Source of the DNA: a virus
Lineage: Duplodnaviria; Heunggongvirae; Uroviricota; Caudoviricetes
DNA length: 64,000 nucleotides
Reading direction: 5' to 3' (one strand)
IMG/VR virus record: IMGVR_UViG_3300032330_001391
Coordinates: 53,103-117,102 of that record
Shown: positions 23,658 to 62,334 of the stretch, piece after piece
How the letters are laid out: the number at the start of each line of letters is the position of its first letter
Position numbering within the stretch: position 1 is the first letter of the stretch
Notes under the pieces: generated by a model
What the model was told of the DNA's origin: nothing
Database searches by the model: none
What the model saw: only the letters and a program-made list of their open reading frames with translations
Translations under genes and position numbers: made by a program

Positions 23658-23679
23658 AACCTTTATTTTTAAATTTAAC

Positions 23680-23718: not shown

Positions 23719-23720
23719 TG

Positions 23721-26565: not shown

Positions 26566-26588
26566 AACTTTTATTTTAATATTTTGAG

Positions 26589-45191: not shown

Positions 45192-45194
45192 GAT

Positions 45195-46008: not shown

Positions 46009-46893
46009 TTAAATAATTTCATATTCAATTTCGGTATTAGCAAAACCCCAACTATCATCATTTTGTGATTCTGTAAACCACTCTACCCATTCCCAAGGAT
46101 CATTATACAATTGAGGTAGTTTTTTAGCGTTATCATGAAGTGTGTCTAAATTTCCACCTTGAGGAACCATATTTTTATGAGATAAATGATATAACGGTAA
46201 ATCAAAATGTGCCTCTAAACTATATCCGTTTAATACTGATTTTTTCTGGATGTTGGTGTCTCCGAAACAAGCATACAACATTTGTTCTTCAAATCCTTTT
46301 ATTTTATGCCATACATCTCTGTGAGCTAGTTGGAAGTCCCCACAGCAGTTAATTAAACTATATTTATCATTAGGAGTTACTTGAGCAGTAATGCATCTAG
46401 GTATACTCTCAATATCCATTTTGTTTCTGAATTCTTTCCAATTTTCAAATCCTATTTTTTCTAAATTTTCATATTCTGCTTCTCTTCGTGAAATAGAATA
46501 AAAAGTATTTTTATTCGCTTTGGATACAAAACTATCTAAATATTCTTTTTTAGGAGCAATAATATCAATAACAGTACTAGTAATCCAATCAGCTGTGCAT
46601 CTACGTAATAGTATATTTTGAGCTAAAATAAAAGCGTAAGGACTAATATTTTTATTTTCTTTAGTTATTTCATTTACTACTTCTTCTGGAATTATAAAGT
46701 GTTTTATTTTCCCTGTTTTTGGAATTTGGTCTTTCAGCTTCCATAGAATGGGTCCACTATTTGCTGGTGAACCCCAATCACAGAATAATACCTCATCAAA
46801 TGTTTCAACCATTGATGATAAACATACTATTATTCTTTCATCTTCTTTATATCCATCATTGCGGCAGCCTAGTACCGCTCCTTTTGTTTCCAT
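46009..46893 (-). CDS. hypothetical protein of the glycan island (possible glycosyltransferase-like)
   Basis: 294-aa ORF. No confident motif. Confidence 0.35.
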   Translation of the reverse strand: METKGAVLGCRNDGYKEDERIIVCLSSMVETFDEVLFCDWGSPANSGPILWKLKDQIPKTGKIKHFIIPEEVVNEITKENKNISPYAFILAQNILLRRCTADWITSTVIDIIAPKKEYLDSFVSKANKNTFYSISRREAEYENLEKIGFENWKEFRNKMDIESIPRCITAQVTPNDKYSLINCCGDFQLAHRDVWHKIKGFEEQMLYACFGDTNIQKKSVLNGYSLEAHFDLPLYHLSHKNMVPQGGNLDTLHDNAKKLPQLYNDPWEWVEWFTESQNDDSWGFANTEIEYEII

Positions 46894-47684
46894 TAATTTA
46901 ATATTTCTTTTATAGATTTTTTATAATACCCAAATTTCCCTCCAGGTTTAAACTCAGCTTTCATTCTTCCCTTACCAACATAACCATCAACAAATTTTTC
47001 AACAGGATTAATTCTTATATCTATTGATACTCTAGAATCTTTTATTCTTGGTTGGTTAGTATGGATACATAATGAATCAAATAAAAATATTTTATTAGTA
47101 TCAGATTCTACTTCAAAACATAAAGAATCAGCTTTCTTGTTAAAATCTTTATCATTAATAGCTTTCTCAATAAATAATTCTTCATTATTATCAACTTCAT
47201 CTAACCATTTTTTACTAGTAGGATAATCCATAAAATAAAAACCAGAATGAGTATTATTTGTTAATGAAAACCAAACATTTATTTCTTGTGGAGGATGCCC
47301 ATAAAAACAATCACTGTGGTATCTAGGATAATGATGCTGATTTATAGCATCAGGACAATGAACTCTTATGGTTGGGCATTCTTGAAAATAAAAATCATAT
47401 CCTAATTTGTTATATAAATCCCTAAGAAATTCATTATATAATTCTAAAAATTTATTATCTACATCATAAAGAATTTTAGTAATACCATTAACACCAGAAT
47501 TAAAATCATAATCAGTTAAGGATTTATCTTTAACATATTGATGAATGTTTTCTAAATCATAAACATTATTATCAATAATATCTCTCTCTTTAAGGAGTCT
47601 TAAAGTTTCTTTTTGGAATTTAATATTCCATTCAGAATTTAAATACATATACCCATTGGGTGAAGTTTCATAAATTTTATTCAT
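46893..47684 (-). CDS. hypothetical protein (possible 2OG-Fe(II)/PhyH-like oxygenase)
   Basis: 263 aa. H.D...H-like spacing around RVHCPDAINQHHYPRYHSD. Weak. Confidence 0.3.
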   Translation of the reverse strand: MNKIYETSPNGYMYLNSEWNIKFQKETLRLLKERDIIDNNVYDLENIHQYVKDKSLTDYDFNSGVNGITKILYDVDNKFLELYNEFLRDLYNKLGYDFYFQECPTIRVHCPDAINQHHYPRYHSDCFYGHPPQEINVWFSLTNNTHSGFYFMDYPTSKKWLDEVDNNEELFIEKAINDKDFNKKADSLCFEVESDTNKIFLFDSLCIHTNQPRIKDSRVSIDIRINPVEKFVDGYVGKGRMKAEFKPGGKFGYYKKSIKEILN

Positions 47685-47687
47685 ATG

Positions 47688-48698
47688 TTATCGTTTTAAA
47701 AATTTTCGTCCTGATTTTACTTTATCTCTCCAATATTCTAATAAATCGTTCATTGTTTGTTCAAATGTATATTCTGGTTTCCATCCTGTATGATTTTGGA
47801 ATTTAGTTGTATCTGGTATTTGTAAGTCAGCATCAATCGGCCTGAGGCGTTCAGGATCAGTTACTATTTCAATATTAGATACGGTTGATTTACTTATTAA
47901 ATAATTAAGCATATCTGATACTTTACATGTGTAATTTCCTCCAATATTATAGTATTCACCAGATGTTGGGTTAATTGTTACTAACATATGATATGCTTTA
48001 ACAGCATCTCTAACGTCAGCATATGTTCTTAATGATTCAAGATTACCAACATATATTTTTGGTTCTTGTAATCCTGATTCAATCATTGCTATTTGTTTAG
48101 CAAATGTTGATTCTGAAAATACATCTCCTCTTCTAGGACCAGTATGAGTAAACATACGGGTTGTCATAATTGTCATCCCATATGCCTCAGCGTAGTATCT
48201 ACCTATTAGATCAGTTCCTACTTTTGAGATAGCATATGGTGACGCTGGATGGAATGTACATTCTTCATTTATAGGAAGTTTTTCTTTTGGTACTCTACCA
48301 AATACTTCACTTGAAGCACAAACATGAATAATAGCATTTTTATAGTTTGATCGCCTAATAACCTCCAATAGATTAGTAGTTCCTAAAATATTTGTTTGAA
48401 GTGTTTCAATTGGTGAATCAAAACTTGTTTGTGGATATGACTGTGCTGCTAAATGAAATACATAATTTGGTTTTGATTTATCTATAACTACTAATAGTGA
48501 GGCTAAATCATTTAAATCACCATATACTAATTCAATGCGATCTTTTTTATTTATTTCATCAGATAAATGTTCAATATTTTCTAATGAGTCATTCCATCTA
48601 CATAATCCATAAATTTTCCAATCAGTATTAGCTAATAAATAATCAGCTAAATGTGAACCAACCATTCCTGTAATTCCAGTAATTAATACTTTATTCAT
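47688..48698 (-). CDS. gmd: GDP-mannose 4,6-dehydratase-like (Gmd/heptose dehydratase family) extended SDR
   Basis: N-terminal Rossmann LITGITGMVGSHLADYLL, catalytic region, and overall Gmd-like layout. ORF track extends to 48770, overlapping the upstream gene. MNKVLITG is the likely start. Confidence 0.7.
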   Translation of the reverse strand: MNKVLITGITGMVGSHLADYLLANTDWKIYGLCRWNDSLENIEHLSDEINKKDRIELVYGDLNDLASLLVVIDKSKPNYVFHLAAQSYPQTSFDSPIETLQTNILGTTNLLEVIRRSNYKNAIIHVCASSEVFGRVPKEKLPINEECTFHPASPYAISKVGTDLIGRYYAEAYGMTIMTTRMFTHTGPRRGDVFSESTFAKQIAMIESGLQEPKIYVGNLESLRTYADVRDAVKAYHMLVTINPTSGEYYNIGGNYTCKVSDMLNYLISKSTVSNIEIVTDPERLRPIDADLQIPDTTKFQNHTGWKPEYTFEQTMNDLLEYWRDKVKSGRKFLKR

Positions 48699-48699
48699 T

Positions 48700-49674
48700 T
48701 TATGTTGTGTATGGGGCTTTATTAATTTTAGAAATATACCAATCAATTGTTTCTTTAATACCTTCTTCAAAAGTATAAGATGGTTTAAATCCTAATTCTG
48801 TTTGAATTCTTTCTGTACTTACAGCTCTAAAAGGTATTGTTGTTGGTTTTGTTTCGTCCCAGATTACTTCTGGTGTTTCACCTGTAACTTTTAAAATTGA
48901 ATTCACAATTTCACCAATTGTAATTCCACCACCGTATCCTAAATTGTATGGCTTCATTGACTCTCCATTTTCCAATATTAATAACGCTCCTTTAACTACA
49001 TCTTTAACATATAAGAAATCTCTAACAACATCTGGACTACCCCAAACAACGAATGGATTTTCTTTACTTAAATGTCTTTTAATAAGTGCTGGAACAACAT
49101 GGCATGTTTTTAAGTCAAAATTATCATATGGTCCAAATATTGCGGTACATCGAGCTAATGCTATATGCAGTCCTGAAAATTTAGATACATGTTCCATAAG
49201 TTTTTCTCTATATCTTCTAGCCCATCCGTATCCATAATATGACTTATAAGGCTCATCAACCCAATACTCATCTTCAGTTAATGGTTTTCTAATATCAGGA
49301 TATCCAGTAGAACTGTTTAAATCAAGAAACTTTTTAACACCTGTTTTAGCACATGCTTCTAATACATTACCTATTAAAGTTAATTGTTTTAATGATATTT
49401 GAATATCAGTTGGTACTGTAGATGGGTGTGCTACCTGTCCACCACAATGAATTACATATTCTGCTCCTTCAACTAATTTAATACAATCTTCTAATTTAGT
49501 TAGATCTATATTTTCATAAATTTCAATCCCATCCTTACTGACCTGTAAAGGTGAATGATGGGTATGTGTTCTTACTTTAGCTCCTCTTTTTACTAATTCA
49601 AGTAAAAAATGAGACCCAATAAAACCACTACCTCCAGTAACTACAACTGTTTTGTCTTTAAAATGATTTTCCAT
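48700..49674 (-). CDS. NAD-dependent epimerase/dehydratase (SDR; sugar 4-reductase/epimerase candidate)
   Basis: 324 aa. VVVTGGSGFIGSH Rossmann motif, YxxxK-type catalytic region. Confidence 0.65.
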   Translation of the reverse strand: MENHFKDKTVVVTGGSGFIGSHFLLELVKRGAKVRTHTHHSPLQVSKDGIEIYENIDLTKLEDCIKLVEGAEYVIHCGGQVAHPSTVPTDIQISLKQLTLIGNVLEACAKTGVKKFLDLNSSTGYPDIRKPLTEDEYWVDEPYKSYYGYGWARRYREKLMEHVSKFSGLHIALARCTAIFGPYDNFDLKTCHVVPALIKRHLSKENPFVVWGSPDVVRDFLYVKDVVKGALLILENGESMKPYNLGYGGGITIGEIVNSILKVTGETPEVIWDETKPTTIPFRAVSTERIQTELGFKPSYTFEEGIKETIDWYISKINKAPYTT

Positions 49675-49683
49675 ATTTTATTT

Positions 49684-50655
49684 TTAATGATTTATAAATG
49701 CGTTATAACGTTTATCTAAGATTTTTTTATTACTTAAAAACCACTCAGTAGTACGTTTTATACCTTCTTCTAATGATACGGATATGTTAAATCCATATGA
49801 TTTAGCTCTAGTCATATCAAATAAGCGAATTTTATCTCCAGCTGGTTTGTCAGTTAACCATTTAATTTCAAGCGGTTTACCAGCATGTTTAACTACCATT
49901 TCTACAACTTCTTTAATTGAATAGCCTTTACCAGATCCTAAATTAATAGGTTCTGTTATTTTATTTTCAACTGCAAATATCATTCCTAAAGCAACATCAT
50001 CTGCGTGAATAAAATCTCTAATAGTTGAACCATCACCCCATACTTCTAACACATTATTTTCTTGTGCTTTTCTAATTAATGATGGTACTACCATAGCATT
50101 AGCTGGATCGAAATTATCGTATGCTCCATAAACATTAGCTGGTCTTACGATTGATATATTTTTAATACCATATTGAATACCATATGCTTCTGCTTGAAGT
50201 TCACCTATCCTTTTTGCCCAACCTGCGAATCTATCATTAGGAGAAGGAAAAGTATTCCAAACTGTGTCTTCAACAAATACATCAGCAGGTGCATAAACAC
50301 CAACTGAACTAGTATATAGATACCATTTAACTTTTGCTCTGCGAGATGCTTCCATCATGTTAGTATTAAATTGAAGCATAGGTACCATAAAATCAGCAGG
50401 TTGTTCAGCACACATCTTAGGTGAACCTTTAATACCTACTAAATTAAATACATAATCCATTCCATTACAAATTTTTTCACATTGATCAAAATAACGTAAA
50501 TCAACTTTAACATAATTTACTTCATTTGGTAGATCAGATGGTTCTGTAAGATCTGCGATTGTAATTTTGGCTCCTTTTTCTAATAGGAGACTAACTAATG
50601 AGCGGCCAATCATTCCACCCCCACCAGTAACTAAAACTTTTTGATTTTCAAACAT
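49684..50655 (-). CDS. NAD-dependent epimerase/dehydratase (SDR), second copy
   Basis: 323 aa. VLVTGGGGMIGRSL Rossmann motif. Confidence 0.65.
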   Translation of the reverse strand: MFENQKVLVTGGGGMIGRSLVSLLLEKGAKITIADLTEPSDLPNEVNYVKVDLRYFDQCEKICNGMDYVFNLVGIKGSPKMCAEQPADFMVPMLQFNTNMMEASRRAKVKWYLYTSSVGVYAPADVFVEDTVWNTFPSPNDRFAGWAKRIGELQAEAYGIQYGIKNISIVRPANVYGAYDNFDPANAMVVPSLIRKAQENNVLEVWGDGSTIRDFIHADDVALGMIFAVENKITEPINLGSGKGYSIKEVVEMVVKHAGKPLEIKWLTDKPAGDKIRLFDMTRAKSYGFNISVSLEEGIKRTTEWFLSNKKILDKRYNAFINH

Positions 50656-50660
50656 ATTAT

Positions 50661-51278
50661 TTATTTATTAAAAGATACAATAGAATATCTAGGACTCAAA
50701 GCATATTCTTCTACAACACTTACAAAATGAGGAGCTCTAAATACTTTATTATTTAACAATACTACTCGATTAAATTTAGGAAATATAGGCTGACAAAATT
50801 CTTTTTCTTCATGGGATAAAACATTTAAAATTCCTCCCCAATCCCATCTCCATTCTTTATTAACATAGTAAATAAAATTAACTGAGCCCGCGTAATCATC
50901 ATTGTGTGATCGGTAGTAATTATTTTTATCTAATTTGTAACATCTAACATCAAATTCATTTATCACAAATGGAGATACTTGTTTTAATAAAGGAATAAAA
51001 TAATTATTAAAAGTATTTTTAATAAGATCTGTTGATTCTAAAGTTTTAGATCTATTAAATTTAGCTGAATAATGTTCGTTAGGGCGTGGAAGAAATTCAT
51101 TGTCCGATTTTAAAATACTATTATAATGATTTTCTCTAATTTGGTCTATAAACTCCCATTCTTTATTTTGAGAATACGCTTCATTAATCTCATTAGCTAA
51201 TTCTAAGGGTAACATATCATCTAGTAATGAAAACCCATTGCTGTTAAGTTCTTCACTTATTTTTTTATAATTTTTCAT
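50661..51278 (-). CDS. hypothetical protein (possible 2OG-Fe(II) oxygenase fold)
   Basis: 205 aa with an HND...H pattern. Weak. Confidence 0.3.
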   Translation of the reverse strand: MKNYKKISEELNSNGFSLLDDMLPLELANEINEAYSQNKEWEFIDQIRENHYNSILKSDNEFLPRPNEHYSAKFNRSKTLESTDLIKNTFNNYFIPLLKQVSPFVINEFDVRCYKLDKNNYYRSHNDDYAGSVNFIYYVNKEWRWDWGGILNVLSHEEKEFCQPIFPKFNRVVLLNNKVFRAPHFVSVVEEYALSPRYSIVSFNK

Positions 51279-51292
51279 AAGTTTAAATATAA

Positions 51293-52216
51293 TTAATTTT
51301 CTTTAATTTTCCAAATAATTACTGGGTTTCCTTCTATATAAAGAGATCCTATTTGAAGTCTTTTTTTTAGGATAATTTCTATTTTACCTTCTTTTTCTAA
51401 TTGTTCTAAATAAGATAGATATCCTTTTAAATAATTTCTTTTTTTAGTGTATAATACACATAACTGATCTACTAAATTATCTTCATCTAGAAACTCAACC
51501 ATAGGTTCAAAATTAATACATAACGCTGGTTTCTTCACTAAGAGATAATCAATAAATTCTTTATAATTTTCTCCTATTTGTTCTAAAGCATTGCATGTAA
51601 ATACAGCACTATTACCAGGAATATCTATAGTATAATCAGGGTTAAAAAAATCAAAATTATATCCTTTAATTTTACTATTAATCGCTAAGTTATTTATTTC
51701 TTTAATAATATTTTGAGAAGCTTCTGCCCAATCTAAACCTATTAAATTGATATTTTTATTAAAATTTCCAAAGCGTAATAGGTGATATGATGGGCCACAT
51801 CCAAATTCTAATAGATTATCATATTTTGTTCCAACATATTCATGCAATATAGCATCAACTAATACTACAAGTTGGTAATAATCAAAATATTTAGAATTAC
51901 CTTTTACAAAATCTTTTTTCCACCTAGCTATATTATATTTACCAAAATATTTAGGTACTAAAGTATTAATATTATTTCCACTTTTTAATAATTCTAAATT
52001 TTCATACCATCCCTTTTCCCATTTTTCCAACCGATGTTGGCCGGCTTTTTCTAAATCTAAATTAATATGGTTTATTATATCTAATATAATTTTATCTCGC
52101 TGACTTTGTTCTGGATATTCAAAACTAAGATCATAGTTTTCAATCATTTCTTTACAATGATTACTAATAGGGAATCCTACTATTTCTTCAATATCGTTTG
52201 ATGTTATTTTATTCAT
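51293..52216 (-). CDS. SAM-dependent methyltransferase candidate
   Basis: 307 aa. Motif I-like LEFGCGPSYHLL. Confidence 0.45.
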   Translation of the reverse strand: MNKITSNDIEEIVGFPISNHCKEMIENYDLSFEYPEQSQRDKIILDIINHINLDLEKAGQHRLEKWEKGWYENLELLKSGNNINTLVPKYFGKYNIARWKKDFVKGNSKYFDYYQLVVLVDAILHEYVGTKYDNLLEFGCGPSYHLLRFGNFNKNINLIGLDWAEASQNIIKEINNLAINSKIKGYNFDFFNPDYTIDIPGNSAVFTCNALEQIGENYKEFIDYLLVKKPALCINFEPMVEFLDEDNLVDQLCVLYTKKRNYLKGYLSYLEQLEKEGKIEIILKKRLQIGSLYIEGNPVIIWKIKEN

Positions 52217-52222
52217 TATTTT

Positions 52223-52708
52223 TTATTTATCTCTACTAAATAATATAGGATTATCATGTGGCCATTCAAATCCCCATTCAGGATCGTTCCATTTTATAAC
52301 AAACTGATTTTCAACATCATTGTATTGACCTTCAAAAGCTAATTTGTAATGAAAAACACATTCGTCACTTAAAACAAAATGAGCATTTCCACAGCCTGGT
52401 GGGATTAGTATTTGTTTTCTGTTTTTAGAAGATAAAATAAACCAATCCCATTGTTTATATGTAGGTGAATCAAATCGATTGTCTGCTACTATTAAATAAA
52501 ATTCTCCATACATACAATTAATTAATTTCCATGTGTTGGAATCTCCATGTAAACCACGCAGTACATTTTTTCTAGAATGAGAAAATTTATCTAAACGCCA
52601 ATTTAAATTAGGATATTTTTCATTATCCCATGTAGTGTATATGTCACCTCTGAAATCCTCAAAAGCATCTGGTGTGAAGATTTGTATATCTTTTATTTTA
52701 TTTGTCAT
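52223..52708 (-). CDS. dTDP-4-dehydrorhamnose 3,5-epimerase-like (RmlC cupin) sugar epimerase
   Basis: 161 aa. N-terminus IFTPDAFEDFRGDIYTTW and His/Tyr placements typical of RmlC-like cupins. Confidence 0.55.
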   Translation of the reverse strand: MTNKIKDIQIFTPDAFEDFRGDIYTTWDNEKYPNLNWRLDKFSHSRKNVLRGLHGDSNTWKLINCMYGEFYLIVADNRFDSPTYKQWDWFILSSKNRKQILIPPGCGNAHFVLSDECVFHYKLAFEGQYNDVENQFVIKWNDPEWGFEWPHDNPILFSRDK

Positions 52709-53237
52709 TGTAAAAATCTCCGTTTTCTATTAACAATGTTGATTTAGAATCTTCTCTCAATAGTGCCTTTTCAAACGCTGGGAATATTTCTTCTGGTTCA
52801 TTCAGTAATACTACTTCAATATGATCTCTACACATATCTGTAAATGCTTTAGTATAGTCTTGAGTATGTTGAACACCTCCATTTAATGGATTTGTTGATC
52901 CAATAGATGTCCTAATAATAACTCTAGGTTTCATCTGCCCTCTAGACATTAAATTTGCTTTATCTATGTGATTAATCATTTGATTAACAGCACAAATAAG
53001 AAAATCAAATCTAGGATAACATGTCACAGGTACAAATCCTTCAAGGGCTAAACCTAAAGACATTCCCATCTGAACATCTTCAAATACAGGAGTTTCAATT
53101 TTTCTATCATTAGGAATAGAAGATAGTGTGTTAAAAATAGCATTTCCTGAGTATGCTACTGATTGGCCTAAAAATAATACTCTTGGGTCATTGTTTAAAT
53201 ATTCCATTGACCTAATTAACTCGTCTTTATATTTCAT
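52698..53237 (-). CDS. transketolase-like, C-terminal/pyrimidine-binding subunit
   Basis: 179-aa ORF paired by ATG/stop overlap with the N-terminal subunit. Small for a true transketolase half. Confidence 0.45.
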   Translation of the reverse strand: MKYKDELIRSMEYLNNDPRVLFLGQSVAYSGNAIFNTLSSIPNDRKIETPVFEDVQMGMSLGLALEGFVPVTCYPRFDFLICAVNQMINHIDKANLMSRGQMKPRVIIRTSIGSTNPLNGGVQHTQDYTKAFTDMCRDHIEVVLLNEPEEIFPAFEKALLREDSKSTLLIENGDFYNDK

Positions 53238-53255
53238 TATTATATGTTTTAAAAT

Positions 53256-53885
53256 TTAAAATAAAATCCAACTTCCAGTTCCATGATGTGGAAATCCTCT
53301 CTCGTATGAGTAATAAATTACATCATCAGGCACAGAACGTTTTATACCGTTCCAAGTTAGATCTGTAGGTGTATTTGTACTCATATTATTATCTTCAACA
53401 ACAAATTGTAAAGGTAAATTAAAATTAGTAGCATATTTATGCACCTCATAAAACGTTCCTGTTTCAAATGTCATATCTCCAATAAAACACCATACTTTTC
53501 TTTTTGATTTTTTAAGATGTAATGCTTGTGCTGCTCCTAAAGCAATCGGAAGTATTCCGCCTACAATAGCAGATGAATAAAAATTATGTTCAGCTGAGTT
53601 AGTACTCATACTTCCTCCTGATACTATCCAATTAAATAGTTTATCTTGAGGGTATCCATGTAATAAAGCATGGTAGTGGTTTCTCCAGGATGAGAATACC
53701 CAATCTTCAGGGTGAATATATTGAAATATCTCAATTAATTGTTCTTCATTTCCTTTTGAAAGATGAATAGGAGCTTTAATACTTCCATTTTCGTATTCTT
53801 CTTTAATTTTAATTTCAAAATCTATTAGATCTTGAGGTGTTAAACTCACCTGTCTTTCTTTTTTTAAATATTTAGGTATATTCAT
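53256..53885 (-). CDS. transketolase-like, N-terminal TPP-binding subunit
   Basis: 209 aa. GDMTFETG...VVEDNNMS resembles the TPP-binding GDG-x-E...N motif. Confidence 0.5.
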   Translation of the reverse strand: MNIPKYLKKERQVSLTPQDLIDFEIKIKEEYENGSIKAPIHLSKGNEEQLIEIFQYIHPEDWVFSSWRNHYHALLHGYPQDKLFNWIVSGGSMSTNSAEHNFYSSAIVGGILPIALGAAQALHLKKSKRKVWCFIGDMTFETGTFYEVHKYATNFNLPLQFVVEDNNMSTNTPTDLTWNGIKRSVPDDVIYYSYERGFPHHGTGSWILF

Positions 53886-53982
53886 AATTTATTATTTTTA
53901 ACAATTTGTTTAAAAAATGTACTTTAGATAAATATAATTTATTTTTTTTAATTTTTCAAATTTTTCTTTAACACTATTTAGA

Positions 53983-54936: not shown

Positions 54937-55578
54937 TTATTTTGATTTTTTAATGTATAAAGCATTTCCGTAACCATTAAGAATATTTAAGTATTTTCTT
55001 TCAAAATTAAAAGTAGTTACATATTCATCAATTTCATTTAATAAAGCACAATCTACATAAATTTCTCTCTCATTTACTTCTGTATAGATAAAATCAAATT
55101 TTTCTAACAGATCTCCTAAACCTTTTAAGGCTAGTAACTCTGCTCCTTGAATATCCATTACTAGTAGATTAAATTTATCTTCTATATTATTTTCTTTTAA
55201 TATAGTGTTTAGTGTTTTTGTTTTTTTATTTAAATACTCTACATATTCTATATGTGGTGCTAGAATTTTATGTTCTCCTAATTCTAGCATAGATGAACTA
55301 AATGTATTATTAGTAATTTTAAAAGTAATTTCTTTTCCATCTTTATCCCCAACGCATTCGTTTATAATATTTAAATCAGGATTTAATTTTAAATTATTTT
55401 CTACTAAATAATCAATAGCTTCAACCCAGTATATGTTTTGATTATCTAAATAATCTAAGTATACTATTTGTTCTTCACATTTATGAGCACCAACATGTAA
55501 GACTCCTTTTAAATTAAGTTTAAAAAAATCAATCAATCCTTTAAGGGTTTCTCCGTAATAATTTTCAGTTATTGTCAT
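54937..55578 (-). CDS. FkbM-family methyltransferase
   Basis: 213 aa, VGAHKCEE...MDIQGAELLAL pattern of FkbM-type MTases. Confidence 0.5.
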   Translation of the reverse strand: MTITENYYGETLKGLIDFFKLNLKGVLHVGAHKCEEQIVYLDYLDNQNIYWVEAIDYLVENNLKLNPDLNIINECVGDKDGKEITFKITNNTFSSSMLELGEHKILAPHIEYVEYLNKKTKTLNTILKENNIEDKFNLLVMDIQGAELLALKGLGDLLEKFDFIYTEVNEREIYVDCALLNEIDEYVTTFNFERKYLNILNGYGNALYIKKSK

Positions 55579-55579
55579 T

Positions 55580-56467
55580 TTATATATTGTTTATTTGGAT
55601 AAATTCATTAAAAAACAATTTTAGTTTTTTATCAAATTTAATTTCTTGTTTAGCAATTTCATAATTAAAATCTATATATTGTTTTAATTCATAATATTTT
55701 TCTTCTGTTAAATTATTTATAATATGAATAAGTTCTTCTACGTTTTCAAATCTAATTATACCTCTTTCGTCATAACCATAATATGATATTTTAGGACACC
55801 CCCAATATATTGGTAATGTTTTAGTAAGAAAAGCCTCACTTATTTTTTCTGAAAAGTAGAAATCGTATTTTGTATTTTCTACACAGACATGAAACATAGA
55901 TTCTTTAAATAAGAGTTTTTTACCTTCAACTTGAGGCATAACTATTTTACCATCAATATACTCAGTATGGCTAGGTCTACCTACTCCTCCATTATTAAAA
56001 TCTTTCCAATTAAAATCATCAAGCACATAATACCATTTTTTAGGAATTGTAATTTGTTCTTCTATTTTATATATCTCTTGTCTTAATTTATGACCTTCTA
56101 CTAATTTTTTAGCTCCTGATAAAAAACTTACTTCAAACTTTTTACTTATATTTTTAAAATGGTTAATATAATCTTCATCTAAATAGTTACAACTATGATG
56201 AAATAAAATAGCATTATCACATTTTTCTAATACTTCTTCATTATATGTTAATACTCCAGTAAACAAATGATGATTTTGTAATATCCAACTATGCATTCCA
56301 AAAAATTCATTAGGCTCATGGAGCATAATAAAATTATAAGGATTAACTTGAAGTTGTTCTATATTTTGTGGAACATAATCATAAAAAAAAGTTATAGGTT
56401 TGTTTATTTGTTTTAAACCATCATATAAAGGATCAGATTCTGGTATGAAATTAGAAAATATTTTCAT
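55580..56467 (-). CDS. hypothetical protein of the glycan island
   Basis: 295-aa ORF. Confidence 0.35.
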   Translation of the reverse strand: MKIFSNFIPESDPLYDGLKQINKPITFFYDYVPQNIEQLQVNPYNFIMLHEPNEFFGMHSWILQNHHLFTGVLTYNEEVLEKCDNAILFHHSCNYLDEDYINHFKNISKKFEVSFLSGAKKLVEGHKLRQEIYKIEEQITIPKKWYYVLDDFNWKDFNNGGVGRPSHTEYIDGKIVMPQVEGKKLLFKESMFHVCVENTKYDFYFSEKISEAFLTKTLPIYWGCPKISYYGYDERGIIRFENVEELIHIINNLTEEKYYELKQYIDFNYEIAKQEIKFDKKLKLFFNEFIQINNI

Positions 56468-57348
56468 TATTTTTTAAGCATATTATTTTGTAAATGATTG
56501 ATCATTTTATTCCATCCTATTTGAAATAAATCTTGTTTTCTATTAATAGATTTTAAATACCTATCATATAATGTTCGATTAATATACTTATAATCCTCTG
56601 CTATTACAAGATTTTTTATTTTATACTGAGTAGTGTTAGGAATATATTTACAACATTCCATTATAAATGTATCTATAGGGCTGTATCCTTCTATATCTTT
56701 AGGAAATTGAATGTAGTCTAATAATTTTTTAGAATATAAAGTAAACCATGCTCCTCCCCATTTGTATGTTTCTAAGGGTTCTAAACTTAAATCCCCATAT
56801 GTGCTAATTGTATCTGTTATAGCGTCATTTTTCTTTTCATATCCATATGGCTCAGCTAAAAAATTATCGTTAACTAATACATCCCAACTGTTATCCCATA
56901 GTTTAACATATTCTGGAGTAATTACGTAGTTCGATTGTTTTTGTTTGATTTCTAAAGAAGATTCTAAGATTAAATTTAAAGTATAAGGATGAAATACAAT
57001 ATCTATATCTAACCATATCATATCATCAACATTTGGATACTTATAAATGTTATTTATACAACAATCAACACAACCTTTTACTTTATTATCTATATTAAAG
57101 GTATATTCATCACACCAATCAGCATATTTTTTAAGATTTTCAAATTTATTAGTAAAATAATCTTGCTTTAAAACTGAATTATTCCAATCTGTAAGATAAT
57201 CTGATATAGGAAGTGTTACATCTAGTATAACATAAAATTTATCTTTATCAATATAAGCTGATGCTTGTTTGAGTAATAATAAAGTTCGTTCTAGGTAATC
57301 TATTTCATTTACCATAGGAAATATTTGTATGGCTACTTTATGTTTCAT
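56467..57348 (-). CDS. hypothetical protein of the glycan island (glycosyltransferase-like)
   Basis: 293-aa ORF. Confidence 0.35.
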   Translation of the reverse strand: MKHKVAIQIFPMVNEIDYLERTLLLLKQASAYIDKDKFYVILDVTLPISDYLTDWNNSVLKQDYFTNKFENLKKYADWCDEYTFNIDNKVKGCVDCCINNIYKYPNVDDMIWLDIDIVFHPYTLNLILESSLEIKQKQSNYVITPEYVKLWDNSWDVLVNDNFLAEPYGYEKKNDAITDTISTYGDLSLEPLETYKWGGAWFTLYSKKLLDYIQFPKDIEGYSPIDTFIMECCKYIPNTTQYKIKNLVIAEDYKYINRTLYDRYLKSINRKQDLFQIGWNKMINHLQNNMLKK

Positions 57349-57983
57349 CTATTTGCTTTAGTATAAATTTCAAATTGTGATAAATCTGGATATGGTAGCT
57401 CTAAGTCAGCGTTATGTTTTTTAGTTCCATCTGTATTATAAAATTGATTCATAAGAAGTAATCCACGAGCTGCTAATTCAGGCATCATATAAAAATTCCA
57501 TCCCAACATATCAAAATGATCATCATGATATGAGCATTCATTTCTTCCACTATATCTAGCTCTTTTAAACCACTTGTAAGCATCTTCATCATCAGTTAAA
57601 ATAGCTCCCCCTTTACTTAATTTAAAGTGTTTGTAAGGACCAGTAAAAGATATACACATATGTGTCCCAGGAATATACATGTCTGCAGTAAACGACAATG
57701 CAGAATCCCAAACTCTAGTTGGTTTTAACTGGTATGCTCCTTTTAAAGTAGTTCCAATGACTGATTCAAAATTTATTTTAGCCCCAGCATGGACAATTTC
57801 ACACGGTACTGAAGGGTATGTTCTATTAGGAATAGTAATTTCTATCCCTTTAACTTTTTCATACATTAACGCTAAAAATAGACCATTTGATTGATTATCA
57901 ACGGTTACAACATACTGTGCTCCAGTATAATCTGCTAGCGCTTTTTCAAAATCTTCTGTTATTTTATATATTCCTTGTGCCAT
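57345..57983 (-). CDS. DegT/DnrJ/EryC1-like aminotransferase-fold protein, short (212 aa)
   Basis: N-terminal FEKALADYTGAQYVVTVDNQSNGLFLAL...IPNRTYPSVPCEIVHAGAKINF matches the DegT pattern, but is about 160 aa shorter than typical. Confidence 0.4.
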   Translation of the reverse strand: MAQGIYKITEDFEKALADYTGAQYVVTVDNQSNGLFLALMYEKVKGIEITIPNRTYPSVPCEIVHAGAKINFESVIGTTLKGAYQLKPTRVWDSALSFTADMYIPGTHMCISFTGPYKHFKLSKGGAILTDDEDAYKWFKRARYSGRNECSYHDDHFDMLGWNFYMMPELAARGLLLMNQFYNTDGTKKHNADLELPYPDLSQFEIYTKANR

Positions 57984-57984
57984 A

Positions 57985-58206
57985 TTATTTTTCTTTAAAA
58001 ACTTCTATACATAAAACATTATTATCATTAACCATTATCATACTGCCGTCTTCTTTAAAGAATTTAGTAAATTGACCTTGAGTTATAGATTCAGATTTAA
58101 TGTTATTAAATGTTCTTTTAACTCCTCCTTTAAAATGAATAATTTGAGTTACTGTTTTTCCTTGAAGATTTACAGTTGAGTTTAAATTTAAAAATTCTTT
58201 GCTCAT
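57985..58206 (-). CDS. small hypothetical protein
   Basis: 73-aa ORF. Confidence 0.3.
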   Translation of the reverse strand: MSKEFLNLNSTVNLQGKTVTQIIHFKGGVKRTFNNIKSESITQGQFTKFFKEDGSMIMVNDNNVLCIEVFKEK

Positions 58207-58832
58207 AATGTATTATAGTAATTATTTTGTTGTTCTTGTCTTTCAATTGTTTTTGGGTGATATAAACACCAATGTTCTTCATCTGGAAGATACGAATACG
58301 TTTTAGTACCCTCTACTCGCTCGTGAACTTTATTAATCCATTTTATATTATCGTCTTTACGGTATATTCTTGATTGATAATCAGGAAAATTAACCCATCC
58401 TTTATTATTAATATTCCAACCCCACTGTTTAATATGATCTTGAGTTATACCTTCTACTGTATTAATTCTAGGAACAATAAACATATCAACTGATGGATTT
58501 TGTTCTAATAAATTATGGATATTTAAGATCAAATATTCATGTGGATATTCATCAGCGTCAATATTAAAGATATAATCTCCTGTACAAAGTCTTGTTAGTG
58601 TATTTTTCCAATCAGCAAAATGATTATCAAAAGGTTTTCCTACCCAAACAAATCCTTGTAGATGAGCAATAGACATAGATCGTAAATATTCTTCTACATC
58701 TACTGTTCCATTTTTAGTGTCATATAATACCACTATTTCATCTTGTTCTCGTTTTGAATTTAAAAGTAAAGGTAATAATCTGCTTATTTCATTAAACTCA
58801 TTACAAACGGTAATTGCGTAACTTATTTTCAT
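58203..58832 (-). CDS. family-2 glycosyltransferase
   Basis: 209 aa. ISYAITVCNE opening and DAD-like (NIDADEY) motif typical of GT2. Confidence 0.55.
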   Translation of the reverse strand: MKISYAITVCNEFNEISRLLPLLLNSKREQDEIVVLYDTKNGTVDVEEYLRSMSIAHLQGFVWVGKPFDNHFADWKNTLTRLCTGDYIFNIDADEYPHEYLILNIHNLLEQNPSVDMFIVPRINTVEGITQDHIKQWGWNINNKGWVNFPDYQSRIYRKDDNIKWINKVHERVEGTKTYSYLPDEEHWCLYHPKTIERQEQQNNYYNTL

Positions 58833-59087
58833 TTAGTAAATTTTAATTATATTTCCATCTTTATTTAAAAGACTAGCAAGTTGAAATTTTGAATCGTAAT
58901 GTTTTCTTATAGTATTTACAACATTTCCCATGCCTATAAAACTAACGTATTGGTTAAACCACATATGGAATTCTCCTAAATTAAATTTAAACAATTCATT
59001 AGTATTAAATTCTGTATAGTACTCGTAAAATATACTAATATCAAAATTACCTGTTTTAATCATCTCAATATACTGTTCTCTTTTCAT
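58833..59087 (-). CDS. small hypothetical protein
   Basis: 84-aa ORF with own promoter. Confidence 0.35.
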   Translation of the reverse strand: MKREQYIEMIKTGNFDISIFYEYYTEFNTNELFKFNLGEFHMWFNQYVSFIGMGNVVNTIRKHYDSKFQLASLLNKDGNIIKIY

Positions 59088-59091
59088 ATAC

Positions 59092-59130
59092 CGTAAATAT
59101 ACGATAAAAAATTTAGGTAGCCAAATTTTC
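59092..59130 (-). promoter_or_regulatory. conserved phage promoter inside the glycan island
   Basis: taaatatacgataaaaaatttaggtagccaaatttt, near-identical to the copy at 43728. Confidence 0.5.
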
Positions 59131-59586
59131 TTCTTGAGGGAGGATACCTACAAAACTTAAGGCTTCCATATAGTCTCTTTCTTCAAAATGCTGTATGTTA
59201 TCCATATCCATTCTGAATTTGTAGTACTCACCTGGTTTAGACTTGATTGGGTATTTTTCTTTTTCTTCTTCTAAGACAGGAACTGCTTTCACAGCCGACC
59301 ACTTCCATAAATTAGCTCCTGTACCATTTGCAAATACCATCCCTTGATCAGGAATATTAATAGATGATGGCATCCAAATTTTATTTTCATCGTCTGTATA
59401 GAATAAGTCTTTATACAGTTCAGGTAAAATTTCTTTTTGCTCTTCAAAAAATGTTTCATCTTCTTTCATGAGTGAATTTGTAGTAAATCCACATCCTAAA
59501 CAGTGGTATGATTTCACACCACTGTACGGCTCAGATTCCATACATGCGTCTGAGCCGCATCTTTTACATATTACTAAATTATCCAT
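59113..59586 (-). CDS. hypothetical protein with N-terminal zinc ribbon
   Basis: 157 aa, CKRCGS...CLGC. Confidence 0.35.
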   Translation of the reverse strand: MDNLVICKRCGSDACMESEPYSGVKSYHCLGCGFTTNSLMKEDETFFEEQKEILPELYKDLFYTDDENKIWMPSSINIPDQGMVFANGTGANLWKWSAVKAVPVLEEEKEKYPIKSKPGEYYKFRMDMDNIQHFEERDYMEALSFVGILPQEENLAT

Positions 59587-60888
59587 TTATTCTGCTTTTT
59601 TAAGTTTTGGTAACTCGATTTTTTTAAGTTGAGGTAATTTAAGTTGAACTTGTTTTGGAAACTCAGGAATGTATTGTGTAAATAAAATATCCATTTTTTC
59701 TTTCATTTTATCCCAACTAAACTCCATTTTATTTCTATATGCTTGGCGTTTACCACCATCTATATAGTTTTTATAGTTTTCAAACATATCTTTCATATAA
59801 TGGCCTACTTGACCTTGATCAACAGATAACCATTGACTTTCTTTTAATAACCACTGATTAGCAGCACTTGGATGTACATTAGTCATTTGACCGGGTAACA
59901 TAGTTACAAATTCAGGATTTAAGAAATCAGTGTGACCACTCCAATTAGTTGTGATAATTGGTTTTTTAACTAAACTGAATTCAAGTAATGGACGACCAAA
60001 ACCTTCACCTCTAGTTAAATTAACCATAGCTTTTACTTTAGGATGGTTATATAATTCATTTATTTCTGAATCTGAAAATTCACCATGTAGTAAATAAACA
60101 TTAGGTAAATCTTTTGAATTAACTGTTTTCTTAATTAGTTTAATACGCTTAAGAATTTCTTCCCTATCAACATATGATGAACTAACCATTGATGTTTTTA
60201 AAATAAGTGCTGGTTTGTTCTTTTTGTTTTTAAATATCTCATAAAACGCCTTAATTAGTAGGCCAACGTTTTTGCGGTCTTCACCGATATCGCCTTGAAT
60301 CCAGTGTCCTACGAACAGATAAGCGAAATCTTCCTTGATTGAGTCAAGATTAATATTCTTGATTTGGTTTCGCTCTATTACTTTATACACATCTAAATTA
60401 GCTCCTTCAAATAATACCTCAACAGGTTTTTGAAGCTGTATTGTTCCTTCAATTTGATTTGTTTGTTGATTACGTCTTTCAAATTTACTCTCTTCAAATA
60501 CTTTTTTAGAATGATTAGATGAAACTAAATTTAAGTTCATTCTATTAAGACCCTCAATCCAATCAGGAGCACAGATAGTAGTTTCAATACCTGCTGTTAC
60601 ACCAATATTATATTTTCCTACAGGTTGAAATTCACTTGGTATTGAAATTTGCATCCATATTTCTGGTTGTTTAGGTAATTGATTATCATGTAGTACATGC
60701 TCTACTAAAAATGACCATTCAGGGTTATCTTTACAAAATCCCCAAGGTGTACTTCCCCAACGTTGTGATAATAATTTAACGTTGTATTTATCTGTTTCAA
60801 TAACAGCTTTAATAACATCTCTCGCTCTAGCACCATATCCTGAATAGGTATCAAATGGTGATGAGATTATAAATAATGGTTTACTCAT
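59587..60888 (-). CDS. glycosyltransferase (GT-B fold, GT4-like) candidate
   Basis: 433-aa ORF. C-terminal half has E-x7-E-like GT-B features. Confidence 0.45.
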   Translation of the reverse strand: MSKPLFIISSPFDTYSGYGARARDVIKAVIETDKYNVKLLSQRWGSTPWGFCKDNPEWSFLVEHVLHDNQLPKQPEIWMQISIPSEFQPVGKYNIGVTAGIETTICAPDWIEGLNRMNLNLVSSNHSKKVFEESKFERRNQQTNQIEGTIQLQKPVEVLFEGANLDVYKVIERNQIKNINLDSIKEDFAYLFVGHWIQGDIGEDRKNVGLLIKAFYEIFKNKKNKPALILKTSMVSSSYVDREEILKRIKLIKKTVNSKDLPNVYLLHGEFSDSEINELYNHPKVKAMVNLTRGEGFGRPLLEFSLVKKPIITTNWSGHTDFLNPEFVTMLPGQMTNVHPSAANQWLLKESQWLSVDQGQVGHYMKDMFENYKNYIDGGKRQAYRNKMEFSWDKMKEKMDILFTQYIPEFPKQVQLKLPQLKKIELPKLKKAE

Positions 60889-60900
60889 ATAACTTATTTT

Positions 60901-62334
60901 TTAATATACTAATTTATGGTTTACAGTATTGTCTTTAACTTCATTACAATTTATTAATTCATATTTTTCTCTTGGTTTCCAAGTATCAAACAAAATATCA
61001 AACGCTTCTATCACTCGTTTACCTTGTTCTTCTCCTGTAAATCCAGCTTCTTCTCCAATCGCCCATTCTCTACCTTTCAATCCTATACGTCTTAATTCTT
61101 CTCTACCTAAATTATAAACATTCATAATTTGAGCGGCAGCGTCTTCTGCGGTACATCTATCATCCCAAATATAAGGAGTAACTGGAGAACCTACAATTGA
61201 ACGATTAGTTGGGAATACTGGAAATGCCCATTCACCGCATTCTTTTACAGTACCATTATGGTTAGAAGGAAAATCAGCATCAAAATCAATCCATTTATTT
61301 TCTTTAGAGAAACGCATTTGATCTTGCATTCCACCTGTTACGTTTGCTATAATTGGACGACCAGCTAATATGGCTTCAGTTAAACTTAATCCCCATCCTT
61401 CATTTGAAGTTAATAGTATTTGAGCATCAGAACAATTATATAATAAGTTCATTTCTGCTGTATTGTATCTATTTGTAGAGAAATATACGTTGTATTGGTC
61501 TCCATTAAGAAATAATTCTCTAACAGCTTCTAAATCAGTACCATGTTCACTTACAATTTCAGTATGTAAAACAAAAGCACATTTTTTAGCTTTTTCTGGT
61601 GATAATTGATCTATAAACAATCTGTATGCTAACATAGCATCTGGGATTTGTTTACGTCTAATATTTCGAGAATTAAAAAATAATACAAAATCATATTCTT
61701 TATTTCCAAATAAATTTCTTTTAAATTGAACTAAACTAGGATCTTTTTCATCAAGCGGTTTCATAAGCTCATGATTTAAACCATGAGGTACATACTTAAT
61801 AATTCTATTTTTAGCTTTATCGCCTAATACTAATTTATTAATATTAACAGTTTGTTTTGAGATACCCATCAATAAATCACAGGCTTCATAAAATGCTCTG
61901 TTATATAATGGTGCCGGATAATCATCCCAAATGTTTAAATAAGCAATAGGAATTTTCTTTCTTATTTCATTTTCAATCTGGAAAATATGAATGAAATAAC
62001 GTGGATCAGTGATTAACATCAATGCATCTGGTTTTTCAATTTCAATTAATTGTCTAATTAATTCTTGACTACCATATCCACTTACTGGGTAAAGCATAAC
62101 GTTTGAATCTGTCAAACCGGTTGTAGTGTTGGTATCTTGAGATAAATCAAATCGTTTACCTTCATCTGGGTGCTGTATTGATCCTCCAATTGTGACCCAA
62201 TTAAAATGTTGTGCTGTATGTAGGACAATTTCTCTTCCTACAGTTGCTACTCCACTATGAACACGAATGTCATCTGTGATTAGCATTATTTTTTTCCTCT
62301 TTTCTGGAGGTAAATACGAAAACGTTGAATTCAT
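60901..62334 (-). CDS. glycosyltransferase (GT-B fold) candidate
   Basis: 477-aa ORF. Confidence 0.45.
   Translation of the reverse strand: MNSTFSYLPPEKRKKIMLITDDIRVHSGVATVGREIVLHTAQHFNWVTIGGSIQHPDEGKRFDLSQDTNTTTGLTDSNVMLYPVSGYGSQELIRQLIEIEKPDALMLITDPRYFIHIFQIENEIRKKIPIAYLNIWDDYPAPLYNRAFYEACDLLMGISKQTVNINKLVLGDKAKNRIIKYVPHGLNHELMKPLDEKDPSLVQFKRNLFGNKEYDFVLFFNSRNIRRKQIPDAMLAYRLFIDQLSPEKAKKCAFVLHTEIVSEHGTDLEAVRELFLNGDQYNVYFSTNRYNTAEMNLLYNCSDAQILLTSNEGWGLSLTEAILAGRPIIANVTGGMQDQMRFSKENKWIDFDADFPSNHNGTVKECGEWAFPVFPTNRSIVGSPVTPYIWDDRCTAEDAAAQIMNVYNLGREELRRIGLKGREWAIGEEAGFTGEEQGKRVIEAFDILFDTWKPREKYELINCNEVKDNTVNHKLVY

Follow-up and report, generated by a model that had tools for sequence, protein, structure and literature searches.

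A conserved glycosyltransferase core and a variable, putatively heptose-type sugar cassette in the glycan locus of a tailed phage

Gene content and phage context of the locus

The sugar-gene island analyzed here was found in a 64,000-nucleotide stretch of viral DNA (positions 53,103 to 117,102 of the IMG/VR record IMGVR_UViG_3300032330_001391, Caudoviricetes); this whole stretch is called the window below. From position 62334 to position 46009 of the window, 22 open reading frames (ORFs) of 73–477 amino acids (aa) follow each other head-to-tail on the minus strand. All 22 are intact and tightly packed: neighboring ORFs either overlap or lie within 25 nt of each other, the sole exception being a 97-nt gap at 53886–53982. 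Protein families were searched for in Pfam, NCBIfam, PHROG and PDB sequence profiles, and a fold search was made by Foldseek on an AlphaFold2 (AF2) model. The encoded proteins form a contiguous set of nucleotide-sugar enzymes and glycosyltransferases, as claimed in the original prediction made for this DNA, most of whose family calls are correct. Comparison with related phages makes it very likely that the island represents a glycan locus in which a conserved core is combined with a horizontally swapped cassette, and that the phage is an Immutovirus-like myophage.

The island sits in a tailed-phage genome of ~161 kb. Its surroundings are of phage type and include a baseplate wedge protein (PHROG 219) with 45% identity to that of Flavobacterium phage immuto; the window also encodes an ATP-dependent DNA ligase, an RNA ligase, a ClpP-like protease, a thymidylate synthase and four tRNAs. 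Gene order around the island is syntenic with immuto, whose genome is 160 kb, and a glycosyltransferase identical to the 477-aa enzyme of the window is encoded on a metagenomic contig of 160,908 bp. A bacterial-chromosome origin of the window was ruled out by the phage genes and the synteny. The Pfam HMM search and the comparison with Flavobacterium phages, both proposed along with the original prediction, returned sugar-pathway families and a syntenic relative, respectively. Integrase or lysogeny genes were not found among the window ORFs scanned.

The island as a whole had no megablast match among 50,697 phage records; the relatives described below are detectable at the protein level only. 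Scans of the 44.5–64 kb region yielded 120 promoter sites (133±12 in shuffled sequence) and six terminator sites (4.6±2 in shuffled sequence); since such sites are no commoner than in shuffled sequence, no operon boundaries were obtained.

Conserved core and variable cassettes among related phages

The upstream block of most fetched loci consists of a PD-(D/E)XK nuclease, a small ORF, two GT-B fold glycosyltransferases of 477 and 433 aa, a 157-aa zinc-ribbon protein and a 209-aa glycosyltransferase of family GT2 that closes the block. The conserved block of the island (58203–62334 in the window) is common to hundreds of viral contigs and to two cultured phages, immuto and the Microcystis phage Mel-JY01. 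The nuclease is preceded by a DUF1599 protein in about one third of the loci, and these two genes, which lie outside the sugar chemistry and mark a fixed left border, have the same order in immuto. A 183-bp ORF occupies in immuto the position of the ~65-aa ORF of the window. The downstream flank, comprising a 130-aa protein, a DksA-like zinc-finger protein and an HNH endonuclease, occurs in most of the loci whose sequence extends to it, and in immuto the order is again the same (DnaK suppressor, then HNH).

The first of the core glycosyltransferases, hereafter GT477, has 259 relatives in IMG/VR, the best 80 of which are at least 71% identical, and at least 8000 relatives in metagenomes. Its best PDB sequence match is the chlorovirus NY-2A protein B736L (E 1e-9). 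The AF2 model of GT477 (pLDDT 79, pTM 0.83) is matched by GlgM, MshA, PimB', BshA and B736L in the Foldseek search, and the enzyme is predicted to be a retaining glycosyltransferase of the generic GT4 fold. The 433-aa protein is its distant paralogue (BLASTP E 1e-8), and the PF00534 (Glycos_transf_1) scores of both GT-B proteins are only just over the Pfam cut-off. The immuto counterparts of GT477 (gp181), the 433-aa protein and the GT2 enzyme (gp178) are 56%, 58% and 54% identical, respectively. The zinc-ribbon protein is encoded between the GT-B pair and the GT2 gene. A distant GT477 homologue was also observed in Rhodothermus phage RM378. The two GT-B genes are adjacent in the window, and ~700 bp of extra sequence lies between them in four relatives (L005, L017, L019 and L068, at ~11431–12180 in locus coordinates).

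The genes that follow the core are variable. In 18 loci spanning both flanks the cassette has a length of 3.8–14.9 kb, compared with 12.4 kb in the window; the loci share from 0 to 100% of its content, and at least seven cassette types with essentially no common content can be distinguished. The cassette type is independent of the backbone relatedness, because the relative L017 with 85% glycosyltransferase identity shares 1% of the cassette, and the relative L090 with 76% glycosyltransferase identity shares 82%. Among the alternatives are cassettes with a UDP-galactopyranose mutase, GT2 enzymes and a methyltransferase, and cassettes in which a fused E1 alpha-beta protein accompanies a Zn-dependent dehydrogenase and a PfkB kinase. 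Every relative examined retains some glycan cassette at this site.

Both cultured phages have the same architecture and the same gene order: nuclease, small ORF, two GT-B genes, hypothetical protein, GT2 and variable sugar genes. In immuto the locus (10.8 kb, 49172–59988) is closed, as in the window, by the DksA-like protein and HNH; the Mel-JY01 version is shorter. The immuto cassette encodes aminotransferases, an acetyltransferase-like 'pilin glycosylation protein', an epimerase and a mannosyltransferase, and is devoid of the heptose and E1-like module of the window. The immuto locus is annotated in GenBank, and no published function for either locus was found in the literature searched.

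One could propose that the cassette is recently captured host DNA that does little or nothing for the phage, or that its product is a soluble glycoconjugate or metabolite instead of a decorated macromolecule. High identity of its enzymes to bacterial loci, an incomplete pathway with no nucleotidyltransferase found in the window, a GC content below the rest of the window (0.26–0.29 compared with ~0.31) and the presence of the small-molecule glycosyltransferases MshA, BshA and GlgM among GT4 relatives would all fit this explanation. We nevertheless regard it as quite improbable, given the intact and tightly packed state of all ORFs, the retention of the sugar module at 50–90% identity in ~19 viral contigs, the persistence of some glycan cassette at the site in all relatives examined, and the place of the core glycosyltransferases among the best-conserved genes of the lineage. 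The GC content of the cassette region 50000–58000 is 0.257–0.289, compared with ~0.30–0.34 across most of the window; bacterial O-antigen loci are likewise low in GC.

Large phage sugar islands are already on record, and the window is one more example of this documented class: the genome is of a phage, the sugar enzymes and glycosyltransferases are contiguous, and their content varies at the same site. The statement that such a metabolic capacity is unusual in a phage was overstated, since islands are found in immuto, Mel-JY01, the Synechococcus phages Bellamy and SynMITS9220M01, and in pelagi- and cyanomyophages. Hypervariable glycosyltransferase and lipopolysaccharide (LPS) islands were described in the latter two groups, with a total of 162 LPS-related proteins in pelagimyophages (PMC7029224) and with 22 island-type genes in S-SCSM2R, a phage with 13 glycosyltransferases (PMC12801897). 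The islands of P-SSM2, S-SCSM1/2R, Bellamy, SynMITS9220M01 and the pelagimyophages resemble the window in being large, variable, contiguous sets of nucleoside diphosphate (NDP)-sugar and glycosyltransferase genes in lytic aquatic myophages. Those of Bellamy and SynMITS9220M01 span ~20–25 kb and contain a 54%-identical dehydratase together with annotated heptose kinase and isomerase genes. In contrast to these T4-like phages, the window has a backbone that is not T4-like, and its island differs in genomic position and glycosyltransferases; neither a conserved core of three glycosyltransferases nor an E1-like thiamine enzyme is reported for them. The literature searched contains no description of the combination seen in this non-T4 lineage, a recombining cassette attached to a conserved core of three glycosyltransferases. 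Temperate serotype conversion systems of the gtrABC/Oac type are not matched by the island, which encodes no membrane proteins and has unrelated gene content.

Table 1. Genes of the glycan locus and its flanks, listed in the order of the minus strand. Related loci are those with homologues; the last column gives identity between the phage protein and its counterparts in bacterial loci.
Feature	Position	Strand	Length (aa)	Family match or motif	Related loci	Identity to bacterial loci
DUF1599 protein	63550-63915	-		PF07659 E 2e-7	35	
PD-(D/E)XK nuclease	62595-63545	-		PF12705 E 5e-20	84	
Small ORF, adjoins first glycosyltransferase upstream	62357-62554	-	~65		86 (47-100% identity)	
Core glycosyltransferase 1 (GT477), GT-B, GT4-like	60901-62334	-	477	PF00534, 26.9 bits		
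Core glycosyltransferase 2, GT-B	59587-60888	-	433	PF00534, 28.7 bits; PHROG 2170 E 5e-21	77	
N-terminal zinc-ribbon protein	59113-59586	-	157	weak PF14354 E 0.0045; no PHROG	67	
ORF	58833-59087	-	84	no family match	8	
Core glycosyltransferase 3, GT2, GT-A fold	58203-58832	-	209	PF00535 E 3e-9, 37.3 bits	60	
ORF, start of variable cassette	57985-58206	-	73			
Short DegT-like protein	57345-57983	-	212	PF01041 E 1e-15, profile positions 24-90 and a second stretch		
293-aa protein	56467-57348	-	293	DxD-like 'DIDIV' and 'GGAWF' motifs		
295-aa protein	55580-56467	-	295	weak fucosyltransferase-like GT10 C-terminal match, PF00852 E 7e-4, 19.7 bits, below cut-off		
FkbM-family methyltransferase	54937-55578	-	213	PF05050 E 4e-14; TIGR01444 above its cut-off		
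GHMP sugar kinase	53983-54936	-	317	N- and C-terminal GHMP domains; NF049969 E 6e-34, below equivalog cut-off		31-35%
E1-alpha-like chain	53256-53885	-	209	TIGR03182 E 5e-27; PDB E1 alpha E 2e-6		57-69%
E1-beta-like chain	52698-53237	-	179	PRK09212 E 6e-16		54-68%
RmlC-fold cupin epimerase	52223-52708	-	161	PF00908 E 8e-36		41-51%
307-aa methyltransferase-like protein	51293-52216	-	307	LEFGCGPS motif; no Pfam match		32-37%
2OG-Fe(II) oxygenase	50661-51278	-	205	PF13661 E 1e-10; PF13640 E 1e-9		
Fcl-like extended SDR	49684-50655	-	323	PF01370; NF047922 (below cut-off)		25-56% (both SDRs)
Fcl-like extended SDR	48700-49674	-	324	PF01370; NF047922 (below cut-off)		25-56% (both SDRs)
NDP-sugar 4,6-dehydratase	47688-48698	-	336 (from ATG at 48698)	PF16363 E 9e-80		58-68% in 5/6 loci; 39% in L110
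263-aa protein	46893-47684	-	263	TIGR04324 E 5e-13, far below cut-off; PF13759 E 0.006		
GT-A fold glycosyltransferase	46009-46893	-	294	no Pfam family; assigned by structure prediction		
Right flank: 130-aa protein, DksA/TraR zinc-finger protein, HNH endonuclease	44520-45841 (genes at 45449, 45195 and 44520)	-		PF01258 E 4e-5; PHROG 14736 HNH E 3e-10	15-18	

Predicted sugar chemistry of the cassette

The 4,6-dehydratase, for which there is no curated equivalog, carries SSE and YxxxK motifs. The original prediction described it as Gmd-like; it is indeed an extended short-chain dehydrogenase/reductase (SDR) 4,6-dehydratase, but its best PDB match is the GDP-D-glycero-D-manno-heptose 4,6-dehydratase 7us5 (E 1.4e-109, 370 bits), with GDP-mannose dehydratases at E 1e-43 or weaker. 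It is 54% identical to Bellamy gp219 and 64–68% identical to homologues from Pelagibacter and Tara scaffolds. Similarly, the cupin has the expected RmlC-like fold, and its nearest structures are the Campylobacter jejuni GDP-4-keto-heptose C3/C5 epimerases 7ang, 8db5, 7m14 and 8dco (E ~1e-49), ahead of true RmlC (E 1e-22). The GHMP sugar kinase, correctly named from the start, has 4n3o, 3k85 and 4usk as the best PDB matches (E 3e-26 to 3e-20) and by sequence is closest to D-glycero-D-manno-heptose 7-phosphate kinases of the HddA/WcbL type; among the phage relatives fetched, it occurs in this cassette only.

The two proteins listed earlier as SDR epimerase/reductases are Fcl-like (PF01370 E 4e-44 and 2e-42; NF047922 E 1e-43 and 4e-38, both below cut-off). 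They match Fcl in the PDB with E 8e-30 and show partial matches to C. jejuni 7m13 and 7anc, labelled GDP-L-fucose synthase; they are candidate C4 or side-chain ketoreductases. Loss of the catalytic tyrosine in the 323-aa SDR was considered and dropped: homologues have Y, F, E or H at the aligned position, hence it is not catalytic.

Because the dehydratase, the epimerase and the kinase are closest to heptose enzymes and the Fcl-like reductases match the C. jejuni set, it is fairly probable that the cassette encodes a heptose-type pathway. The corresponding enzymes constitute the C. jejuni 6-deoxyheptose toolbox (PMC10680097). The dehydratase, epimerase and kinase have their nearest solved relatives in the GDP-6-deoxyheptose pathway of C. 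jejuni and Yersinia (DdahA/DmhA, DdahB/MlghB, DdahC/MlghC, HddA), the reductases of which belong to the same Fcl-like class; unlike in this pathway, GmhA, GmhB and HddC were not found in the window, and a thiamine enzyme and 2-oxoglutarate (2OG)-Fe(II) oxygenases are added.

In the proposed pathway, GDP-D-glycero-D-manno-heptose would be supplied mostly by the host, with the HddA-like kinase as the only phage contribution. The dehydratase would convert GDP-heptose to GDP-6-deoxy-4-keto-heptose, and the cupin would epimerize the product at C3 and/or C5. At the 4-keto carbon, a minimal thiamine enzyme could then introduce a two-carbon branch derived from pyruvate; both Fcl-like reductases, the two 2OG oxygenases and one or two methyltransferases would tailor the product.

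This putative thiamine enzyme is encoded by a pair of genes that had been taken for a split transketolase; both chains score best against the alpha and beta subunits of pyruvate dehydrogenase (PDH) E1. The E1-alpha-like pyrophosphate-binding (PP) domain contains the GDM-X26-NN cofactor motif, and the E1-beta-like pyrimidine-binding (PYR) domain contains the 'ETPVFE' glutamate motif, as read from the sequences. The two chains are much shorter than E1 or transketolase subunits and cover positions 16–176 of 315 (alpha) and 9–177 of 327 (beta) of the respective profiles, i.e. approximately the first half, which corresponds to the PP and PYR core. We refer to them as the mini-E1 pair. In the relative L014 alpha and beta are fused into one 400-aa protein (15685–16887), and PHROG 34187, labelled 'unknown function', represents such a fused pair of 405 aa, supporting that the two chains work together. 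The L014 fused protein adjoins a Zn-dependent dehydrogenase and a PfkB kinase, a setting that suggests the same branching chemistry on a different sugar substrate.

The mini-E1 pair is co-located with the 4,6-dehydratase in the window and in ~19 viral contigs, and is directly adjacent to it in bacterial loci. In the formation of paulomycose and eurekanate, a two-carbon branch derived from pyruvate is added at C4 of NDP-4-keto-6-deoxy sugars by E1 alpha/beta-like pairs whose genes neighbor those of a 4,6-dehydratase and a 3,5-epimerase (PMC4802897). AviB1/AviB2 for eurekanate and Plm8/Plm9 for paulomycose are likewise separate PDH-E1-type PP and PYR chains in the same gene neighborhood. These systems belong to actinomycete antibiotic clusters, whereas the mini-E1 pair is encoded in a phage and in polysaccharide loci of the SAR11 type, and its nucleotide is probably GDP rather than dTDP. 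By this analogy we tentatively suggest, at a little under even odds, that the mini-E1 pair adds a two-carbon branch to a 4-keto sugar. The alpha chain has 6673 homologues, and the pair, which is abundant and has relatives in Pelagibacter, is a good candidate for a sugar-branching enzyme of marine surface polysaccharides; if the assignment is true, it would be a new and very abundant family of such enzymes. Neither a mini-E1 branching candidate in phages nor a link of this module to SAR11-type loci was found in the literature searched.

Bacterial counterparts of the module were found on Tara scaffolds and in one marine genome assembly, where the mini-E1 alpha gene directly follows the 4,6-dehydratase among Wzm/Wzt, Wzz and CpsB-type genes. 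The pair directly follows a heptose-type dehydratase in the surface-polysaccharide loci L104 (8795–11176), L107 (8842–11176) and L109 (6203–8330), which are from Pelagibacter and other marine bacteria; L104 and L107 additionally carry a separate full-length split transketolase. Among GTDB species representatives, the nearest alpha chains are mostly from Pelagibacter or Pelagibacteraceae and an uncultured alphaproteobacterium (57–65% identity), and two unclassified 'uncultured bacterium' metagenome-assembled genomes encode chains with 68–69% identity. Since bacterial loci hold the whole set of enzymes (Table 1), the phage module can be seen as a copy of a bacterial surface-polysaccharide pathway. 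The bacterial loci have Wzm/Wzt, whereas no flippase, polymerase, exporter or priming transferase (Wzx, Wzy, ABC transporter) family is represented among the island proteins. The latter also have no transmembrane-like segments; the Kyte-Doolittle 19-residue maximum of 1.71 falls in the cofactor loop of E1 alpha. From sequence, then, the phage appears to have taken the module without its membrane and export parts.

The remaining cassette genes encode possible tailoring enzymes and transferases. Of the two or three methyltransferases listed originally, the FkbM-family protein has a Pfam match and is probably a sugar O-methyltransferase. The second, the 307-aa protein, is probably a S-adenosylmethionine-dependent methyltransferase, judging from its motif and from a 37%-identical homologue on the Tara scaffold L104 that bears a weak precomputed Methyltransf_25 match. 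Two 2OG-Fe(II) oxygenases are new to the gene list; the assignment is weaker for the 263-aa protein, which shows weak kinship to TIGR04324, the 'sporadic carbohydrate cluster 2OG-Fe(II) oxygenase'.

The expectation of at least three glycosyltransferases of the GT2 and GT-B types is exceeded: four are supported (three by Pfam, one by structure), and the 295-aa and 293-aa proteins are two weaker candidates that co-occur as a pair in at least 14 loci. The 293-aa protein is possibly a GT-A glycosyltransferase from its motifs; it has no Pfam, PHROG or PDB-profile match, and a Pfam rescan at high E-values added nothing. The 294-aa protein, semi-conserved and the last gene before the right flank, has no meaningful PDB sequence-profile match, and its GT-A fold was resolved by structure prediction only.

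The DegT-like protein, previously described as a fragment, belongs to the DegT-like family and is a conserved short form rather than debris. It comprises the large domain without the C-terminal domain and keeps an 'SF..K..GG' motif resembling that of the pyridoxal phosphate lysine. Forms of equal length that are 82–88% identical are present in L028, L043 and L054, and immuto gp172 (214 aa; 21564–22208 in locus coordinates of L102) is 78% identical; a pseudogene origin was rejected on the basis of this conservation. The half-length family of ~212 aa is thus kept at 78–88% identity across phages whose cassettes otherwise differ.

Possible acceptors of the glycan

We propose that the soluble glycosyltransferases of the island, four supported and two weaker, assemble a glycan in the cytoplasm on a phage-encoded acceptor, which would probably be virion structural proteins. 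A common core would be built by the conserved enzymes and extended by strain-specific outer sugars from the cassette, in a phage counterpart of O-antigen serotypes. Several observations argue for such an acceptor. The core glycosyltransferases are common to phages of Flavobacterium, Microcystis and Rhodothermus, hosts of different phyla, which favors an acceptor travelling with the phage; their conservation is no lower than that of the single structural protein compared (identity to immuto of 56% for GT477 and 45% for the baseplate wedge protein). The absence of encoded lipid-carrier machinery also favors a phage-encoded acceptor, and the chlorovirus protein B736L, as the closest solved sequence relative of GT477, favors the virion. 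The chlorovirus and Che8-type mycobacteriophage systems are likewise based on virus-encoded soluble cytoplasmic glycosyltransferases without lipid-carrier machinery; the likeness is limited by an identity of only ~17% between GT477 and B736L in structural alignment. The Megavirinae clade-specific glycan clusters are comparable virion glycosylation systems. Mycobacteriophages provide a precedent for the glycosylation of virions by phage glycosyltransferases (Freeman 2023, as cited in PMC12619734). We give virion proteins somewhat less than an even chance of being the acceptor.

The same genes could instead serve remodeling of the host surface, with phage NDP-sugars and glycosyltransferase steps fed into the undecaprenyl-linked O-antigen or capsule pathway of the host, which would block superinfection or stop progeny from adsorbing to infected cells and debris. 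This is the published reading for pelagimyophage and cyanomyophage islands (PMC7029224; PMC12801897), although that interpretation is itself a proposal. It agrees well with the module being a close copy (up to 64–69% identity) of bacterial loci located beside Wzm/Wzt exporters, and the lack of transmembrane segments is compatible with it, as O-antigen glycosyltransferases are also soluble or peripheral. The island proteins, however, do not include the priming transferase, flippase, polymerase and exporter, and the three core glycosyltransferases are conserved across hosts of different phyla with differing surface glycans. In addition, the window ORFs scanned include neither integrase nor lysogeny genes, and in a lytic cycle there would be little time for rebuilding a surface. 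We consider host-surface remodeling less likely, but a serious rival.

Another suggestion was that the sugars are used for hypermodification of DNA, in view of a ThyA-family enzyme encoded nearby. The glycosyltransferases would then decorate a modified base against restriction, as in T-even phages, RB69/DLP3 and 5-hydroxymethylcytosine (5hmC) glycan clusters. Phage GT4/GT-B enzymes do glycosylate DNA with mono- to trisaccharides, including heptose (bioRxiv 10.1101/2023.12.21.572611; PMC13326640), DNA-glycosylation clusters are also hypervariable, and the locus lies among DNA-metabolism genes next to the DUF1599 'nucleotide modification associated' protein. The nucleosides of immuto, however, were determined by liquid chromatography with ultraviolet and tandem mass spectrometry detection (LC-UV-MS/MS) as canonical dA, dC and dT, with dG fully replaced by fdPreQ1 and no glycosylated nucleoside (PMC10516641). 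By the residue criteria that separate a true dTMP synthase from a hydroxymethylase or a 5-hydroxy-dCMP synthase (PMC13326640), the ThyA homologue, which keeps L143, C146, D169 and N177, is neither of the latter two. Neither a Tet/JBP-type dioxygenase nor a cytosine methyltransferase was found among the window ORFs scanned, the island oxygenases match 2OG-FeII_Oxy_3/4/5 rather than Tet_JBP, and DNA alpha-glucosyltransferases are far down the fold-search list of GT477. DNA hypermodification is therefore disfavored as very improbable. The thymidylate synthase (35313–36434, minus strand) is unusually long (373 aa), with canonical active-site residues throughout; compared with E. coli ThyA, it has one insertion of the Lactobacillus casei type and an extra ~38 aa at residues 223–261.

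Glycosylation of virions by a two-layer locus with branched-heptose chemistry thus remains the explanation that we prefer, with a probability of roughly 0.45 for the whole. Several points weigh against it. No glycosylated virion protein is on record for this lineage, and the acceptor is not identifiable from the Foldseek search because the GT477 fold is a generic GT4 one. GT4 enzymes also build adaptors on undecaprenyl-linked primers; as these primers are universal, conservation across host phyla is compatible with a host lipid acceptor as well. The DNA data are from immuto, a relative that shares the core glycosyltransferases and has a different cassette. On the side of sugar supply, GmhA, GmhB and HddC were not found in the window when the GmhA, phosphatase and nucleotidyltransferase proteins of Bellamy and S9220 were used as tblastn queries, a motif search for nucleotidyltransferases in the window gave none, and the HddA-like kinase is the only supply-route gene in the window. 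All equivalog HMM scores are under their curated cut-offs, so that the substrate assignments are putative. Finally, the mini-E1 chains are much shorter than the AviB/Plm-type subunits.

We speculate that phages of this lineage form glyco-serotypes, in which the core glycosylates the virion and swapped cassettes add outer sugars, here a C-branched methylated 6-deoxyheptose made via the mini-E1 pair; in this specific form the scenario is doubtful. If it is true, the virion surface would evolve like the bacterial O-antigen. If the virion does carry the glycans, phages would diversify along a new axis through the swapping of cassettes, with possible effects on adsorption, grazing, particle stickiness and immune recognition. 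This lineage offers a tractable test of what large aquatic-phage sugar islands do, because immuto is cultured (on Flavobacterium sp. LMO8) with the same glycosyltransferase block, its DNA is sugar-free, and thousands of metagenome variants are available.

Several other features of the window were observed. Its GC content of ~0.30 is SAR11-like and may hint at the host, although Flavobacterium is the host of the closest phage in culture. Normal tRNA genes are tRNA-Leu (17127–17207), tRNA-Arg(tct) (17688–17760) and tRNA-Met (26588–26662). An additional tRNA-like gene of undetermined identity with a two-base 'anticodon (tg)' was reported by ARAGORN at 23720–23792 on the minus strand. More than ten small ORFs of 45–128 aa form a run at 20400–23700 on the minus strand, with the strongest AT skew of the window (-0.29 at 20–22 kb). 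A possible tRNA/RNA repair or anti-defence module is encoded on the minus strand at 38011–38739, 40841–41590 and 41609–42748, where two calcineurin-like metallophosphoesterases lie close to an Rnl-type RNA ligase that has a PHA02142 OB-fold domain.

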